64,000 nt of DNA from Candidatus Heimdallarchaeota archaeon. Its GTDB lineage: Archaea > Asgardarchaeota > Heimdallarchaeia > Heimdallarchaeales > Heimdallarchaeaceae. Below are positions 14,988 to 25,823 of this stretch, piece after piece. The stretch lies in contig JAHLWR010000011.1 in NCBI GenBank assembly GCA_019057815.1, positions 32,001 through 96,000 on the forward strand. The letters are read 5' to 3'. The notes beneath the pieces were generated by a model. That model did not search any database and had not been told where the DNA came from. It worked only from the letters and a program-made list of their open reading frames with translations. The position numbers and the translations under genes are program-made. How positions within the stretch are numbered: the first letter of the stretch is position 1; each line of letters begins with the position of its first letter.

Positions 14988-15506
14988 ATGAAAAAGCATG
15001 AAAAACTCAGAATAAATGCGAAAGAAGCCAAAAAACGTTCATTAGATTTAGGTTTAGTGATTGTTTACTTTGATCAAATTAAAGGACCAGTTATTCTAGT
15101 AAACCACTCCTCTTTGGATGAGCGTGAACTCTTTCATTTATCAGTTAATGGAACAAGTTCCATGATGAGTGGTGTGAATTATGGTCCAGAGGATACACAT
15201 CGTTTTCGAGGAATCTTTCCTGTCAATGACAGATCTTTTGCTTACTGCTTCGACTCACTCATAACTGTTGATCAAACAGAAAGGTGTTCTTATACACCAA
15301 TATTGCTATTTGTTGTTTTCCCATCTTCAGAGTTAAATTCTTTCGGATTGAATATTAAATCTGTTGAAATGCTTCTAACTAAGTACACTGTAAACAGAAT
15401 AGAACTTTCTCGATTCACTTCAAAATTTTGCGCTTCTGTATGTTTTTCAATTACGAAGGAATTCCAGAAACAGATTTCCGTACTGGGACAAAATTCAAAA
15501 CTATGA
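14988..15506 (+). CDS. Longin/uDENN-like domain protein (Asgard eukaryotic-signature-like)
   Basis: LVIVYFDQIKGPVI matches the hydrophobic-FDxxxGP start of uDENN/longin folds, followed by a helix, a beta-meander and C-terminal helices. Confidence 0.6.
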   Translation: MKKHEKLRINAKEAKKRSLDLGLVIVYFDQIKGPVILVNHSSLDERELFHLSVNGTSSMMSGVNYGPEDTHRFRGIFPVNDRSFAYCFDSLITVDQTERCSYTPILLFVVFPSSELNSFGLNIKSVEMLLTKYTVNRIELSRFTSKFCASVCFSITKEFQKQISVLGQNSKL

Positions 15507-15522
15507 AAGATAAGGTGACACA

Positions 15523-16263
15523 ATGAATGATGAACACGAAACAAAAGGTCCAGGGAGACCCCGAAAATATGCAACATCAGCAGAGCGAAAACGAGCTTAT
15601 AGGGAGAGAAAAAAGGAGAGACTCGCTCAAATGCAAAAAGGTGTTGCAAGACTAGAGAAGAAGGTGAGTAAATTGGGTATAACTAAAGAAAGATCTGATA
15701 AGTTGGATTCTCTACTAAATGAAATCGAGACACCAATGGCTAAATTTGCACCTTCTGAAATCGCAGAAATGGAAAATGATGAACTCTTGGAATTGCGAGA
15801 CATCTTGAGACACTGGTTGCAGGATCATAGAGGGCTTGGAGGAATAGTGACTCAATTGAGCAATGCTATAATTCCAAGAGCGTATGCTTCCTTTGATCAA
15901 TTGGAGTTATTTGGTCCAAGACAAGAAGAAGAAGAAGGAGAGGTAAAATACATTCCCTCGATGGTCGAAACAGTGATAGACAAAAAACGTCAAAATGCAA
16001 GAGCATATTACTTTTCATCATCAAGTAACAGATATAGCAGTAGTAACCTTGCAGAACTATTCGAACAAATCACCTTGCTCTATCTTGTTGAAGCTGAGAT
16101 CGCTAAGAGACGAAGAGACAAAGTTGAAGATTTTGCTATCGTGCAGCTAGAGACTAGAATCAAGGAACTAGAATCACTGCTAGAGGATAGTGAAGAAGCT
16201 AAAACTGAACCTTACTATAGAGGGGGTGAATCAGGTGGAAAAAGAGGTGATATCAATGAGTAA
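15523..16263 (+). CDS. AT-hook + bZIP-like coiled-coil protein (paralogue 1)
   Basis: GPGRPRK, then AERKRAYRERKKERLAQMQKGVARLEKKV. C-terminal LLYLVEAEIAKRRR...QLETRIKELE. Confidence 0.7.
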   Translation: MNDEHETKGPGRPRKYATSAERKRAYRERKKERLAQMQKGVARLEKKVSKLGITKERSDKLDSLLNEIETPMAKFAPSEIAEMENDELLELRDILRHWLQDHRGLGGIVTQLSNAIIPRAYASFDQLELFGPRQEEEEGEVKYIPSMVETVIDKKRQNARAYYFSSSSNRYSSSNLAELFEQITLLYLVEAEIAKRRRDKVEDFAIVQLETRIKELESLLEDSEEAKTEPYYRGGESGGKRGDINE

Positions 16264-17395
16264 GAAGAATTTAGAGTCAAAAGAAAATAAACTGAGAGGT
16301 AAACCAATCGTTCTTGAATTTGGTTCAGCATTTACAAGAATAGGATTTTCGAGTGAAGATGCACCTCGAATAGTTAAACCAACGATTGTAGGTTATAATG
16401 ATGTAGTATCAAAGAATGACAATCTTACATCGATTTTAACCGAAACTAACAAACAAGCGTTTGTTGGCATTGCAGCTATTGAGAAAAGGAAGGAACTCGA
16501 AATAGTATATCCAATTAAAAACAGAAAAATAAATGACATGCAAGCTCTTAAAGTTATGATCCAATACGCAATTGAGAGAGACTTATCAATTACACCCGAT
16601 TTGCATGCAGCAATCGTTATTCTTCCATATCCAATCAGTGAAGAGGAAAAAGAAGAAATTACTAAAATGCTTTTAGACGATCTAAATTTTCCTGGTGTAT
16701 ATGTTTCATCTAGTGAAAATATGCCCCTATACAGTATAGGAAGAACAACTGGTATAGTTGTTGATTCAGGATACGAAAAAACAGATATTATACCTATTTT
16801 AGATGGTAAAATCATCACTAAAGCTGTTAAAAGCTTAAACATAGGTGGATATCACGTTACAAACAAGCTTAGAGAATCTCTGAGAGAGCAAGATTTCACA
16901 TATACAGATGAGGAAGACAAATTCTTTGGAGCTGCAAGAAACATCAAAGAAAATCTATGCTATGTAGCTTTAAATGCGGATAAGGAAATAGAACTAGCTT
17001 CTAAAGTTTCAGGGATGAGAAAAATACACAAGCTTCCAAATGGGGAAAAATATATTGTTGAACTCCAACGTTTTTTGGCGACTGAGATCTTGTTTCAACC
17101 AGAGATGATTGATTTGAAAGAAAAACCATTGCATGAACAAATTATCGATTCGATTCAGTCTTGTGATACTAAAAACCAATCATCGTTGTGGTCTAATATT
17201 GTTATTGCAGGTGGAAATTCTATATTACCAGGATATCATGCTAGATTAAATCACGAACTAAAATCACTAGCACCTGAAAACGAAGATGTAAGAATATATT
17301 CTACACCATCAAACACTAGCTTTTCTTCATGGATAGGCGCAAGTATCCTTAGTTCTAGAATGGAGTTTAGTAAACATTGGATTACAAAAAAGTAA
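16256..17395 (+). CDS. Actin-family protein (Asgard actin-related protein)
   Basis: PIVLEFGSAFTRIGFSSEDAPR, YPI, GRTTGIVVDSG, RNIKENLCYVA, LPNG, EILFQP, NIVIAGGNS and WIGASILSS. ATG at 16256 follows GAGGTGA and overlaps the upstream gene. Confidence 0.93.
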   Translation: MSKKNLESKENKLRGKPIVLEFGSAFTRIGFSSEDAPRIVKPTIVGYNDVVSKNDNLTSILTETNKQAFVGIAAIEKRKELEIVYPIKNRKINDMQALKVMIQYAIERDLSITPDLHAAIVILPYPISEEEKEEITKMLLDDLNFPGVYVSSSENMPLYSIGRTTGIVVDSGYEKTDIIPILDGKIITKAVKSLNIGGYHVTNKLRESLREQDFTYTDEEDKFFGAARNIKENLCYVALNADKEIELASKVSGMRKIHKLPNGEKYIVELQRFLATEILFQPEMIDLKEKPLHEQIIDSIQSCDTKNQSSLWSNIVIAGGNSILPGYHARLNHELKSLAPENEDVRIYSTPSNTSFSSWIGASILSSRMEFSKHWITKK

Positions 17396-17650
17396 TGTCT
17401 AAAAATGTTCTTTTTTCTTTTTTTTCTTTTTCTCTTATACATTTATCGAAGTACTGCTCTCCTACATATGAGGTTCAAGGGACAGTAGGAGAACATTAAT
17501 TTCCAATAATACCTATACAATCAGATATATATTTTAAACATAAATGAAAAAGATTTTCTTAAGATTTGTAAAAAATCTGACTTTTTAGTTAATAATATAT
17601 AGAAAGAAAATTAATTTCTTTTGGCTTTACTTGGAAAAAAGCTATGTTTT

Positions 17651-20089
17651 TCAAACGGGTTCAGGAAGTGGATAAAAATCATATGATCCACTTGAACCAG
17701 CTATTTCATAGGATCCAACACCAATCCAGTCCACCCAATAGTTACCTTCTAGAGTAATAATGTCGTACCAGATGTTGTTGGTTCCTGCATCAAATGCTTG
17801 ACTATCACCATTCATATAATTATCTATGAAGTTATTATAGGATATTACATTGTTTGAAGAGTATTTATTAATTGAAAGAGCATACATTCTGCTATATAGG
17901 AAAGTGTTTCCTAATAAATTGCTATTAGATGAAAAATTCAGCTGTATCCCTGTTTCACAGTATAGCAATTGATTTTTCGAAATATTAGTTTTGAAACTAT
18001 CTTCTATTAACAAACCTACGAATGAACTATTTAGTATGCTATTGTCTTTTACAACCACATCTACGCAACCATATAGCATTGTTCCTACAACACTGAGTAG
18101 AATAGTATTATTAATAATTTCAATCGGTCCAAGCAGTTCTTCATACTTCTTAATTATCACTGAATTTTCAACTTTTGTTAACCAATAACTTGTATTGATG
18201 ACGATTCCAGAGTAAGTACTATTATAAATTAAGTTTTCAGAAACAGTAAGAAAAAAAGTAAAATAACAACGTATGCCACAACCATTATTATCTAAAGAAT
18301 TATACTTAATTGTCATAAATTTAGATTCTATTGAATGAATTCCAAAATTATTACAGTTGAAGATTTCATTTGTTGTTATATTAACTATCTCACAAAAAAT
18401 AACAAAAATCCCTTTTAAACAATTGAAAAAGTAGTTATCAGAAATAATGATTTGAGAACAAAATACCAAAGATAATCCATTAGAATTGATATTATTTAAA
18501 CTACAATTTGTTATGGTACAATTACAAGAATAATATAGAGCAATTCCGTCCTCAACACTCTCAATTTGCTGATTAAGTATTTTTATATCGGAACAATTAA
18601 AGAAAATTAGTTGACCATATTCATCTACAATTTCTTTATTTCTTACATTCTTGAAAAAACCTAAAGGTTTTTTGTTTACAGTATTATTGATAATTGTTGA
18701 GGTAGAAAATAGCAGCTCACTTTCATGACCAAAAAAACTAAGACCATTATTTATCAATTGGTTACTAATAAGGTTAAAGTTTGAGTTCAAATCAATTTTA
18801 ATCCCACTTCCATGATTATTAGAAACTACATTATCTATTACAGTTGCATTATCGAATCTCCAAAGTGAAATACCACTCCCATTATTTTTTTCAATTAAAT
18901 TATTTCTAATGTTTGTACAAGGGGATTCAATTGCACAAATTCCAAAACAATTTGAAGATATCATGTTATTTTCAATATTAGTTTTTTCAGAATCAAAAAT
19001 ACTAACCCCCTTATAAGTATTTGAAAGAGTGGAGTTTAGGATATCACAATTAGAACATGCTCTGAATTCAATAGCTGTGTAGCTATTATTGATCCTCTGA
19101 TTTACAATAGAAACATTAATACAATCAATTAGAAAAATTTGTCCATATTTATCAGAAAGCACTGAATTTTCGAGTTTAGTGAAGAATCCAAGTTTATACC
19201 CATTGATCCAATTATTATATACATTATAGTGTTCAAATCTACTATCAAAAAAATAATCAAGTTGAATACCTAAACCACAGAGAAGGTTATTAGAAATTGT
19301 TGTATTGGTTGAATCACGTATATATAATTTACCTTTATTATCACTATCTACAACATTTCCGTTTATAATAGAATTGGGTGACCATTCCATTGAAAGAAAG
19401 TATCGAGGGGAATCAACAAAAGTATTATTCTGAATTTCAACTTCTGCACTGAAACTAACACGAATATAGCTTTTACTAAATGAATTGTGAACAATCAAAG
19501 TAAAATCTGAACCCCTTAATTCAATTCCAATCATTAGTTCTCCAATTTTTTCCTCAAAAAAACAATTATTTTGTATTCTTACATTGTTTGAATCTTGGAC
19601 ATATATTCCCTGATATCCACAGTTATAGATTGAATTATTTGTGATATAGGCAGTATTTGGAGCTATATTTTTAATTGAAATACCAGTGGAACTAGCTTTT
19701 AATATACAATTTTGTATCACAAAATATGAAGCTATATCCATAATAAGAATGGCATCTCTTGCAGTTGTTGTAATATTAAAATACTCAATGATATAGGGAG
19801 AGTCTTTTGTACCTTTACCCTTGGATGTATAATTCTTGAAGTCAATTTCTCTTTTTATCACAATTGACTCAGTCGTATTTTCAAAGGATGGTTCAGTCAA
19901 ATCATCAGGATATGAATCGGATTGATCATTAATTAAGAAATAAATTCCTACTATACTTCCGCTAATAATAAATAAAGAAAAAAGTATGGATATCGACTTA
20001 AAAAAAGTTGAATTAATCTTTATTTGTTTCATAATATCACAATTGTGTATCACTTGTTTAGGTGTTGGAACACTTATAGGTATTTTCAT
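17651..20089 (-). CDS. CASH/NosD right-handed beta-helix surface protein
   Basis: Parallel beta-helix repeats, G.GT...PYII motif, C-terminal GNYW.DW...D.YPL. Confidence 0.85.
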   Translation of the reverse strand: MKIPISVPTPKQVIHNCDIMKQIKINSTFFKSISILFSLFIISGSIVGIYFLINDQSDSYPDDLTEPSFENTTESIVIKREIDFKNYTSKGKGTKDSPYIIEYFNITTTARDAILIMDIASYFVIQNCILKASSTGISIKNIAPNTAYITNNSIYNCGYQGIYVQDSNNVRIQNNCFFEEKIGELMIGIELRGSDFTLIVHNSFSKSYIRVSFSAEVEIQNNTFVDSPRYFLSMEWSPNSIINGNVVDSDNKGKLYIRDSTNTTISNNLLCGLGIQLDYFFDSRFEHYNVYNNWINGYKLGFFTKLENSVLSDKYGQIFLIDCINVSIVNQRINNSYTAIEFRACSNCDILNSTLSNTYKGVSIFDSEKTNIENNMISSNCFGICAIESPCTNIRNNLIEKNNGSGISLWRFDNATVIDNVVSNNHGSGIKIDLNSNFNLISNQLINNGLSFFGHESELLFSTSTIINNTVNKKPLGFFKNVRNKEIVDEYGQLIFFNCSDIKILNQQIESVEDGIALYYSCNCTITNCSLNNINSNGLSLVFCSQIIISDNYFFNCLKGIFVIFCEIVNITTNEIFNCNNFGIHSIESKFMTIKYNSLDNNGCGIRCYFTFFLTVSENLIYNSTYSGIVINTSYWLTKVENSVIIKKYEELLGPIEIINNTILLSVVGTMLYGCVDVVVKDNSILNSSFVGLLIEDSFKTNISKNQLLYCETGIQLNFSSNSNLLGNTFLYSRMYALSINKYSSNNVISYNNFIDNYMNGDSQAFDAGTNNIWYDIITLEGNYWVDWIGVGSYEIAGSSGSYDFYPLPEPV

Positions 20090-22412: not shown

Positions 22413-22664
22413 AATTTTAGGAATAAGTGTACTTCTAATAATAATCAAAGAGTAAAAGAATGCTCTAAACTGCAGAAAAGAGCTAGTAAAAGACTACATT
22501 TGTGGGATATCATTCCAGAGTGAAGACGATATTACTTTACCTCATGAAGGTTTTTCAACTGATTTTCTATATCGTACTAAAGCCACCAACTTTGATGGCA
22601 TTAATAATTTCATTAGCACTTCTAACTCTTTTCCACAACACCATAAGCCAATTATAGAATATAG

Positions 22665-22730
22665 TAACGTTATGGTAATATTTATATATACTGAGGAGAA
22701 ATAATAACGTGACGAAATTAATTTCGTAAC
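22665..22730 (+). promoter_or_regulatory. Promoter of the second bZIP-like/actin operon with palindromes
   Basis: TAACGTTA (22665-22672), TATA box TTTATATA (22681-22688) and the perfect 16-bp palindrome ACGAAATTAATTTCGT (22712-22727). Confidence 0.6.
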
Positions 22731-22749: not shown

Positions 22750-23649
22750 ATGACTGATAAGAAGAAGAAAGGACCTGGACGTCCCCGAAAACATGTTTCT
22801 TATGATGTGCCTAAAGACGAACTTGCTGCAGCTAGACAGAAAGCTTATCGTGCTCAGAAGAAAAAAAGAATTGTGGAAATCCAACGCAAGGTTGGACGAC
22901 TTGAACAGGAAGTAATAACTATGTCGAAAACTGATAAAAAAATATCGCCTGAAATGCAAGCAATACATGAAGATATTCAAGCTCCTTGGGTGAAATATAC
23001 AGAATCAGAGCTCATGGAAATGGATGATTCTCAGCTTGAACGAATAAGGGCTGTTTTAATAAATCGCTTAATGAATCCTTTTGGTAATCCGTTAACCCAA
23101 GCTTTAGAAAGGGTAATTATGCCCTCTGTTGATCGCGAATTTGATTCAAGAGGTTTAGACTTGAAGAAACCTCCCAAAGAAATAGCAGAAGAAGGGTTAT
23201 CTAAACCTGCAGAGGATGTGACACCAAAGACTGACATGCAAATAAGTCAGTATCTTGAGAGGCTTGAAGCTGAAGGTGTGGATATTTCATCTATTAAGGA
23301 TCATGTTGTTCCTTCATCAATGGAATATAGGAAAGAAGAATCACCTCTTCACTGGAAAAATGTAACAGTAGGGCACAGAATCCAGCCGCTATTTGATACT
23401 TTTCAACAGATGATTTTGCTGTATAATGTTGAAGCTGAATTATCTAGACGAAAACGAGAAATGGCATTGGATTCAGATGTTGAACAGCTCGAAAAACGTA
23501 TCGAAGAACTTGAGAAATCGCTTGTTGATGAAAGAACAAGAGAAGTAAAGAGAAGTTACGCAAGAAAGATGGAGGATTACGCAAGAAGAACGGAGAAAAA
23601 AGATATAATCAAGAAGTCTCCAAAAAAGAAGACTAAAGGTGGTGAATAA
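22750..23649 (+). CDS. AT-hook + bZIP-like coiled-coil protein (paralogue 2)
   Basis: GPGRPRK...AAARQKAYRAQKKKRIVEIQRKVGRLEQEV and C-terminal LLYNVEAELSRRKR...QLEKRIEELE. Clearly homologous to 15523..16263. Confidence 0.75.
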   Translation: MTDKKKKGPGRPRKHVSYDVPKDELAAARQKAYRAQKKKRIVEIQRKVGRLEQEVITMSKTDKKISPEMQAIHEDIQAPWVKYTESELMEMDDSQLERIRAVLINRLMNPFGNPLTQALERVIMPSVDREFDSRGLDLKKPPKEIAEEGLSKPAEDVTPKTDMQISQYLERLEAEGVDISSIKDHVVPSSMEYRKEESPLHWKNVTVGHRIQPLFDTFQQMILLYNVEAELSRRKREMALDSDVEQLEKRIEELEKSLVDERTREVKRSYARKMEDYARRTEKKDIIKKSPKKKTKGGE

Positions 23650-23786
23650 ATGTCCGACGAAGTATACACCAAACCTATAGTCTTAGATAAACGGTACTGG
23701 CTTCACTAAAAACATTTTCGAAATTGTGGGAGACAAAGAAAGAATACCAAGAAATGGGTCCAAGTTCTGTATATAGGTGTATATAG
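23650..23786 (+). pseudogene. Internally deleted canonical Asgard actin gene (N- and C-termini only)
   Basis: MSDEVYTKPIVLD[+1 A]NGTGFTKN joined to LASLKTFSKLWETKKEYQEMGPSSVYRCI*. ATG abuts the upstream TAA, with a GGTGA SD. Confidence 0.88.
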
Positions 23787-23837
23787 TTTTTTCTTTTTTT
23801 GTTTCTGAAATAAAATAAAAAAATAAAGAGAAAAAGA
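23787..23837. terminator. Bidirectional T-rich/A-rich terminator region between convergent genes
   Basis: TTTTTTCTTTTTTT follows the actin-remnant stop; A-tracts precede the convergent NosD stop. Confidence 0.5.
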
Positions 23838-23838
23838 A

Positions 23839-25734
23839 TTACTTCTTCTTCTTTCGCTTAATTCTTAATCCTACATACATTACAGGCACAGCAAATAGAA
23901 TGTAATTTAATTCTCCATGATATTCAGAGATTATTATGATTAATGGTTCTTCAAGTGGATAAGTATCATTAGATCTTGCTGCACCATCAATTGTGTAATT
24001 TCCTAATTCACTCCAGTCTGACCAATAATTTCCTTCTAGAGTAATTGTGTCGTACCAGATGTTGTTTGTTCCTTCATCATATGCTTGACTTGAAGTTCCA
24101 CCATTTTCAGTGAAAGTGTTATGGTGAATAACGTTATTTGCTGAAGCAGAGTCCACATACAAAGCGTAAGCATAATTTGCATGAAAAATATTGTATGTTA
24201 CGTTTGTATTAGTACAACTATAGAGTATTGTTCCAGTAGCAGAACTACCTCCGGTACCAAAAGCTATTGAATTATTGGTTATGATTCCATAAGAAGTACC
24301 TTGAAATCTGCTATTATACCATGAATTTCCAAACAGAGTGTTATTTATAACTTTAAAATCTGTAACACTGTTGAGCAAATATATTCCAAATTGGTTATTA
24401 CTAGCAAAATTATCCTTAATTATTATATCATTGCTGGAAATTGCATAAATTCCACCGTAGTTTCTATTGTTACTACATGTATTGTTCTGTATGAAAATCG
24501 AAGAAGAATGTGTAAAATAGATACTTCCATAGTTATTCGCATTAAAGTCATTATTAGTTATATTAATCGAATTACAATATCGAAAAATTAAAGCTCTACT
24601 TGTATCCATAATATGAACATTCGATATACTAATGTTTGAACAATAAGCCATGATGATTTGTCCATAGAAGTCTCCAGAGATAGTTGCATCAATAAGATCT
24701 CTGAAAAATCCTAAAGGTTTGTCATTCACCGTGTTATTTTCAACATTTAGTTCATCATACACTGCTAAATCTCCTGGTGCGGAAATATCAAAACCATCTT
24801 TTGTTAATGTGTTGTTGACAATTATTGTTCGTGCAGCTAGTTCGTTGTTAATCCCTTCCCATCTGTTATAGTATAATGTATTATTGATTATGGAATTATC
24901 TGCTCCCCCTTGCAAATAGATTCCTCTACGACTATTATCATGAATGTAATTGAAATTTACAGTTGTATCAACAGAATACTTGATGTAAATTCCGTAATAT
25001 CCATTGCTGTAACATTCATTATCAATTACCTTACAATTATCTGCATTATCAACATAAATACCATATTGTGTATTGCCCCAACACATATTTTCAATCAATG
25101 TAGTATTAGCTGATTTAGTCCATATCCCGTGTTGTGTGTTAGAGTAGAACTTGTTCAAACTGAAAATTGAATGTGCTGACCCTTCAACATAAACCCCATT
25201 AGCTTGATATGCACAAGTGTTGTTTGTTACAATGGTATATGGTGAAAATTCTAAGAAAATCCCATCGGAATTATCGTTGCAGATATTTTCTGTGATATTT
25301 ACATAAGTAGTATCGCTGATTCTAATTCCATGCCCACTACCAGTACAAGTATTATTGTAAATCGTTGCTGTACCATCAGCAACATTGTCTATACAAATAC
25401 CACTGCCAAAAGCTTCTAATGTACAATTACGAATGGTAAAATATTTTGTTGTACCAGTAATATATATCCCATAATATTCAGTAGTCTCAATGTCATAATT
25501 TTCAATTATGTATGGTGATTCTGGTTCTCCTGTCCCCGAAGAACTATTTCCTGCTAAATCGTCATCATTAGTTATGTAAAGACGTTCATCTGAAGACAGA
25601 TTTTTATTTGGATAAAGATTAGCGCTAGAATCTTCAGCGGATATCTCAGTCAGAACTAATGTAATCGACGCAGTGCTAAGAAGAATCAAAATAATAATTA
25701 AAACTTTTAGATTTTTTTTAGTAATGTTTCTCAT
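23839..25734 (-). CDS. CASH/NosD beta-helix surface protein with C-terminal anchor
   Basis: Signal peptide, beta-helix repeats, GNYWSDW, TM plus RKKKK tail. Confidence 0.88.
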   Translation of the reverse strand: MRNITKKNLKVLIIILILLSTASITLVLTEISAEDSSANLYPNKNLSSDERLYITNDDDLAGNSSSGTGEPESPYIIENYDIETTEYYGIYITGTTKYFTIRNCTLEAFGSGICIDNVADGTATIYNNTCTGSGHGIRISDTTYVNITENICNDNSDGIFLEFSPYTIVTNNTCAYQANGVYVEGSAHSIFSLNKFYSNTQHGIWTKSANTTLIENMCWGNTQYGIYVDNADNCKVIDNECYSNGYYGIYIKYSVDTTVNFNYIHDNSRRGIYLQGGADNSIINNTLYYNRWEGINNELAARTIIVNNTLTKDGFDISAPGDLAVYDELNVENNTVNDKPLGFFRDLIDATISGDFYGQIIMAYCSNISISNVHIMDTSRALIFRYCNSINITNNDFNANNYGSIYFTHSSSIFIQNNTCSNNRNYGGIYAISSNDIIIKDNFASNNQFGIYLLNSVTDFKVINNTLFGNSWYNSRFQGTSYGIITNNSIAFGTGGSSATGTILYSCTNTNVTYNIFHANYAYALYVDSASANNVIHHNTFTENGGTSSQAYDEGTNNIWYDTITLEGNYWSDWSELGNYTIDGAARSNDTYPLEEPLIIIISEYHGELNYILFAVPVMYVGLRIKRKKKK

Positions 25735-25823
25735 AAAATCCCTATATAAAGAAAGTTATTTGAATATTTAATATTTTCCCGAGCAATACTCTAATTCTCT
25801 CCATTTACCATCAAGTGTAACCC

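Follow-up and report, generated by a model that had tools for sequence, protein, structure and literature searches.

Does a Heimdallarchaeaceae archaeon lack its canonical actin, or has an assembly only hidden the gene? The question is raised by positions 23650–23786 of the window (the whole stretch of DNA that was analysed, 64,000 nucleotides long), which belongs to contig C35 of a 3.7-Mb, 48-contig Heimdallarchaeaceae MAG that is 95% complete (hereafter G000). These 137 nt hold the first 21 and the last 24–31 codons of a Lokiactin-type actin; the two pieces stand in different frames, and one extra A is present. A relic of this size will escape annotation pipelines. The original prediction had read three frames here as the start of an actin, the motif NGTGFTKN and an actin C-terminus, and our analysis recovered the same frames. 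The frame from the ATG at 23650 gave MSDEVYTKPIVLD, then KRYWLH and a stop after 19 codons; the +1 frame gave NGTGFTKN starting at 23690; and the third frame gave VLASLKTFSKLWETKKEYQEMGPSSVYRCI, ending in the stop codon at 23784–23786.

We compared the locus with that of G001, a congeneric but distinct species whose contig C36 is colinear with window 20075–44473 at ~92% nucleotide identity over 24 kb, and with L080, a Logan contig (SRR29278615). The features of the locus, with the pieces assigned to a paralogue that we call actin-2, are as follows.

22750–23649, plus strand: up299, an intact gene of 299 aa that opens with an AT-hook-like motif, GPGRPRK, and otherwise consists of coiled coils; actin-2 is its syntenic partner.
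23633–23649, plus strand: ribosome-binding-like GGTGGTGA, identical in G001 and L080; the up299 stop TAA abuts the relic ATG.
23650–23713, plus strand: N-terminal piece assigned to actin-2, codons 1–21, MSDEVYTKPIVLD-NGTGFTKN (phosphate-1 loop); 1-nt insertion at 23689–23691, and 0 substitutions relative to G001.
23694–23713, plus strand: junction zone of 20 nt, GTACTGGCTTCACTAAAAAC, in which both actin frames can be read; identical junction in G001.
23703–23713, plus strand: candidate microhomology core TCACTAAAAAC; intact orthologue L021 has one copy at each site, with a spacing of 1001 nt.
23714–23786, plus strand: C-terminal piece assigned to actin-2, (VLASLKT)FSKLWETKKEYQEMGPSSVYRCI and stop, in the third frame; Val to Glu at 23730–23732.
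23787–23838, no strand assigned: T-rich 3' flank that separates the relic from the convergent beta-helix gene, probably as a terminator region common to both; relative to G001, 51 positions match, 1 is substituted and 2 are gapped.
23839–25734, minus strand: convergent NosD-like right-handed beta-helix gene of 631 aa, the downstream border (Pfam PF13229, 4.8e-50; PF05048, 1.9e-44).

In a profile search of the whole genome, the C-terminal piece alone matched positions 379–407 of the 410 in the Pfam Actin family (PF00022; E 1.1e-4). Its score of 22.3 bits fell below the family cut-off of 27 bits, as that of a fragment would; the relic gave no above-cut-off PF00022 match over the whole fold, as a functional actin would have done. 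The phosphate-1 loop (DxGxG) was present as DNGTG once the extra A was ignored, and was intact in G001. The relic had no phosphate-2 loop (DSGDG), no adenosine motif and no open frame of ~375 aa; codons ~22–355 were gone. The extra A lay within the AAA run at 23689–23691 and was an insertion relative to both G001 and L080, which read GATAACGG. The Glu of W-E-T (GAG, 23730–23732) was aberrant as well, for 18 of 18 listed intact Lokiactin-type actins have W-V-T/S at this site and the G001 relic has W-S-T. Both changes were unique to G000 in the comparison with G001, whose relic had five altered codons of its own, and the earlier view of them as further lesions was borne out.

The original prediction had also taken the relic for the organism's canonical actin. 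This part did not survive the check that it had itself proposed, a search of the genome for another intact copy. A PF00022 search of the whole of G000 found three intact actin genes: one on contig C38, a divergent one within the window (16190–17395; 257–262 bits) and a 488-aa actin-like gene on contig C27. The gene on C38 (239311–240420) is a Lokiactin-type actin of 378 aa that scored 446 bits against PF00022, and we refer to it as the main actin. It was 95–96% identical to one actin in each genome of a sister genus (g3), 90–92% identical to actins in two other genera of the family and 77–81% identical to those in the order's other families. Relative to G001, it had a dN of 0.001 and a dS of 0.163. 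The divergent actin of the window was only 39% identical to it. Lokiactin is conserved across all Asgard classes (PMC9834061, Rodrigues-Oliveira et al. 2022), and the N-terminus of the C38 protein includes the peptide that was used in the same work to raise Lokiactin antibodies. A loss of this canonical, broadly conserved Asgard actin had in its favour that the relic is of Lokiactin type and that both of its termini match closely; with the main actin intact on C38, scarcely changed in protein between the two species and 95–96% identical in the sister genus, such a loss has practically no chance of being correct. Because the main actin is kept elsewhere, no essential function would have been lost with the relic. 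A false alarm is removed: this Asgard genome has not lost Lokiactin.

Which gene, then, left the relic? Orthologues of up299 (~40% identity) were found in 15 of the 19 g3 genomes searched, and an intact actin lay directly 3' of up299 in nine g3 loci, namely those where the retrieved stretch extends to an actin. These up299-linked actins were 80–84% identical to the main actin, which was also present at a separate locus in the same g3 genomes. In the tree, read as an unrooted grouping and with rooting by families f3 and f4 (a root on the divergent window actin being unreliable owing to its long branch), they formed one clade (SH-aLRT 100) with a long stem, near the main actins of the family, and the L080 actin fragment was sister to this clade (support 93). 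On L080, an up299 orthologue 93% identical in nucleotides to that of G000 was followed, in the same stop–ATG arrangement, by an actin-2 that begins MSDEVYTKPIVLDNGTGFTKNGFAGEDQPR and stays open for 178 codons up to the contig end. The relic occupies the position and orientation 3' of up299 in which the nine g3 loci and L080 carry actin-2.

The relic's own residues agreed with this placement. With one A removed, its 21 N-terminal residues were identical to the start of the up299-adjacent actin of L080 (21/21); they matched the g3 up299-linked actins at 17 of 20 positions versus 12 of 20 for the main actin. The C-terminal piece did not discriminate, matching 20–23 of 30 residues in both actin-2 and the main actin. 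Because the syntenic arrangement and the actin start on L080 settle the orthology, we concluded from sequence and gene order that the relic derives from actin-2 and not from the main actin. By the same comparisons, actin-2 is a second, faster-evolving Lokiactin-type paralogue confined to two genera of Heimdallarchaeaceae, and it would have arisen inside this family directly 3' of the AT-hook/coiled-coil gene. Further searches around these sequences were negative: neither the up299 protein nor a degenerate pattern of the relic N-terminus gave a match in metagenome scans, no longer protein matched the 178-aa L080 fragment at more than 85% identity, and an exact cluster look-up of that fragment gave no match.

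The reduction of a lineage-specific Lokiactin duplicate to a pseudogene relic is a known kind of event. The parent gene resembled described Lokiactin (PMC9834061) in its 378 aa, in its DNGTGFTKNGFAGEDQPRSVF N-terminus (seen in L080) and in a C-terminus of the form ...KEY.E.GP..VYRCI, and its identity to the family's main actin is 81–85%; it differs in that only 137 nt of this second copy are left here, without the ATPase core. One Lokiactin plus ARP-like homologues per genome have been described, rather than two Lokiactin-type copies (PMC9834061). As in an ordinary prokaryotic pseudogene after duplication, the redundant copy was lost and the conserved one kept, and the relic then took up a frameshift and replacements. 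In contrast to the ordinary case, the relic has diverged less than the non-coding DNA around it, and it is common to two species while a third lineage retains the gene. Actin-2 is dispensable, being gone from two species and retained in a close relative. The locus also offers a natural experiment on the AT-hook gene as an actin partner, as up299 has stayed intact (dN/dS of 0.31 relative to G001) after its actin neighbour died. No Pfam family was found for up299; all of its coiled-coil matches were sub-threshold. Upstream of the up299 promoter region, positions 1–236 of L080 had no sequence alignable with window 22429–22664, and similarity began abruptly at 22665.

We then asked whether the deletion is real, the original prediction having offered both biological loss and an assembly collapse that hides the gene. 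The junction evidence consists of two assemblies, not reads. In G001 the junction was the same, ...GATAACGGTACTGGCTTCACTAAAAACATTTTCGAAATTGTGG..., but lacked the extra A. Between the two relics there were six substitutions, every one of which fell in the C-terminal piece and altered an amino acid when read in the actin frame: WET/WST, YQE/YPE and MGPSS/MVSRS (G000/G001). The Met and Ser of EMGPSS are shared by the two relics. They hit conserved positions, including the GP pair that is kept in nearly all listed intact actins. We concluded that the deletion is real, because an intact gene would not tolerate these six changes, nor would an assembler invent them. The reading in which a full-length gene is present and the assembler jumped a short internal repeat draws on the location of the junction in a possible repeat stretch. 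It would have to yield the same junction a second time, in a separately assembled species whose contig is ~92% identical, and to accommodate radical replacements that differ between the genomes as well as the frameshift in G000. Neither assembly contained unplaced sequence from the interior of actin-2, and a repeat of 11–20 nt is shorter than the usual assembly k-mers. A collapse is thus very unlikely, and the biological-loss branch was supported: a second species has the same junction, and decay is visible in the C-terminal piece.

The size of the deletion could be stated exactly. The original prediction had put the missing part of the actin at about 1 kb; the codon spacing from F-T-K-N of the phosphate-1 loop to the C-terminal S-L-K-T was 1001 nt in all 14 intact genes compared. 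Without the extra A the relic is 136 nt long, and 136 + 1001 = 1137 nt, or 378 codons plus a stop. Because this sum is the exact length of the parent, a single clean deletion accounts for everything. This event would have removed codons ~22–355 and joined the codons of the phosphate-1 loop to the C-terminal SLKTF codons with a shift of frame. Later decay would then have given G000 its 1-nt insertion and its Val-to-Glu change, and the sister species its five codon changes. Overall, we put a probability of roughly 85% on the reading that the locus is a dead actin-2 relic left by a 1001-nt deletion, with the main actin elsewhere.

How the deletion came about is less certain. The claim that it ran between two near-identical short repeats had rested on the 20 nt that can be read as actin in two frames, and as a 20-nt repeat this stretch was rejected; the double reading is largely a coincidence of coding. 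TTC ACT AAA AAC (F-T-K-N) shifted by one base is TCA CTA AAA AC (S-L-K-T), and GGT ACT GGC shifted by one base reads V-L-A, so that the codons for G-T-G-F-T-K-N yield V-L-(A/V)-S-L-K-T; the intact main actin itself reads VLVSLKT in the shifted frame. Since this two-frame reading is built into every actin of the clade, a 20-nt repeat does not follow from it. The same property is what makes a short repeat possible, the F-T-K-N codons spelling S-L-K-T when shifted by one base.

The original prediction had suggested looking for the repeat in intact orthologues, and at least one of them has a short repeat at both breakpoints. In L021 (genome G021) the 11-nt TCACTAAAAAC occurred at gene positions 55 and 1056, which are the two breakpoints. 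The bases shared between the breakpoints numbered 7 in L017 and 4–5 in the remaining 12 of the 14 intact genes; among the nine intact g3 orthologues, one had the 11-nt repeat and the others shared 4–7 nt. The repeat comparison covers these 14 genes; for the closest intact gene, that of the L080 lineage, the sequence extends over the first 178 codons. A close orthologue of the downstream beta-helix gene was sought as a route to the C-terminal half of the g1 actin-2, and the best match had 44% identity.

Deletion between short direct repeats, by replication slippage or a microhomology-mediated route, is known in bacteria and archaea. The present case resembles it in having one clean internal deletion that restores the parent length exactly, a junction that can be assigned to either breakpoint, and an 11-nt repeat at both breakpoints of one intact orthologue. 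It differs in that most orthologues share only 4–7 nt and in that the repeat is known from L021, not from the parent. The most likely route would be slippage or recombination between a short direct repeat with the candidate core TCACTAAAAAC. We infer that the deletion used such a repeat; this is supported, not proven.

Did the deletion happen once? A single origin of the deletion allele is the reading that we favour, as the more probable one. On the other reading, the same repeat-mediated event took place independently in the lineages of G000 and G001. Such recurrence would leave no trace at the junction, as a deletion between the same two repeat copies always yields the same product, and it agrees with the up299 genealogy, in which the gene-bearing L080 is closer to G000 than G001 is (93% vs 83% nucleotide identity; dS 0.19 vs 0.38). 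The G001 relic also has more changes than that of G000. However, the 45 retained codons had 0 synonymous differences between the two relics, and the 52 nt of 3' flank had a single substitution. With a dS of 0.163 for the main actin and ~0.11 in non-coding DNA, independent recent deletions should preserve ~5 synonymous differences. Both relics read ACT at 23696–23698, where L080 has ACA. Moreover, dS ranges from 0.11 to 0.44 along the block, and the genealogy of up299 need not be the species tree. Two separate deletions are therefore the unlikely account, though one that keeps appreciable weight against a single origin. As an observation in its own right, the gene-bearing L080 is nearer to G000 at up299, yet G000 shares the deletion with G001.

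The relic was less diverged than expected of dead DNA. Relic and 3' flank together had 7 substitutions in 189 nt between G000 and G001 (0.037), the lowest value among 12 aligned non-coding stretches, the other 11 of which ranged from 0.053 to 0.209 (pooled, ~0.11). It was also below the dS of every neighbouring gene (0.11–0.44). The relic stands apart only when set beside non-coding stretches and synonymous sites; in a plain sliding-window comparison of identity it was unremarkable, 26% of 190-nt windows being as similar. In the 24 kb compared, 23617–23838 was the least diverged non-coding segment between the two genomes, with far more diverged DNA on both sides. Across window 20075–44473 dS varied four-fold between neighbouring genes (0.11 to 0.44), which suggests a recombination mosaic in Heimdallarchaeaceae populations.

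A simple model in which an old deletion was left to decay neutrally does not account for 0.037, because neutral DNA should diverge more. Function would explain it, if the relic had been retained as a translationally coupled micro-ORF or as a 3' or terminator element of the upstream gene. Besides the low divergence itself, three lineages have the same ribosome-binding-like site, ATG and first 13 codons, and a z of −2.2 was obtained for the plus-strand RNA fold. On the other hand, the open frame is not conserved (the longest has 19 aa in G000 but 41 aa in G001), and the upstream gene ends earlier in G001, so coupling is not conserved either. The predicted helix is a low-complexity purine/pyrimidine pairing, and an Rfam scan of 23400–24000 gave only a chance-level match (E 0.44). 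Retention for function thus appears improbable. A deletion allele that coalesced later than the genomes, for example through short-tract recombination, remains an equally good explanation of the low divergence. Taking the two together, the broader proposition that the relic is not neutral junk, and was either kept by selection (as an AT-hook-coupled start site or RNA element) or moved between species as a deletion allele by short-tract homologous recombination, is tentative and on balance doubtful. If the allele did move, the presence or absence of the second Lokiactin would be a polymorphism exchanged among Heimdallarchaeaceae populations.

The border of the relic locus has a history of its own. 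G001 lacks the sequence corresponding to window 23883–25793, so that all it has of the beta-helix gene is the final 44 nt. On C36, at ~17627–17634, a 6-nt filler (ACGATG) links this remnant to the sequence that precedes the next gene. The relic locus in G001 has thereby lost a second gene, in an independent event. This deletion lends no support to a general habit of repeat-mediated deletion, since it shows the filler and lacks clean microhomology.

Window 14988–20089 is occupied by a paralogous cassette arranged like the relic locus.

14988–20089: the cassette, including a 172-aa gene.
15523–16263: AT-hook/coiled-coil gene.
16190–17395: the divergent actin (PF00022).
17651–20089, minus strand: convergent NosD-like beta-helix gene.

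The cassette pair was also found in G001, on contig C173. Two actin sequences of other genomes stood apart. In one g3 genome (G046:C391:14–1141, L078), a 1.6-kb contig carried a third actin that was 66% identical to the main one and sat on a long branch; either contamination or a further paralogue could account for it. In a closed genome from a different genus of the family (G004:C1:970493–970822, L037), an actin fragment matched PF00022 positions 270–394 (E 7e-25) and contained two TAA stops, and it may be another actin pseudogene.
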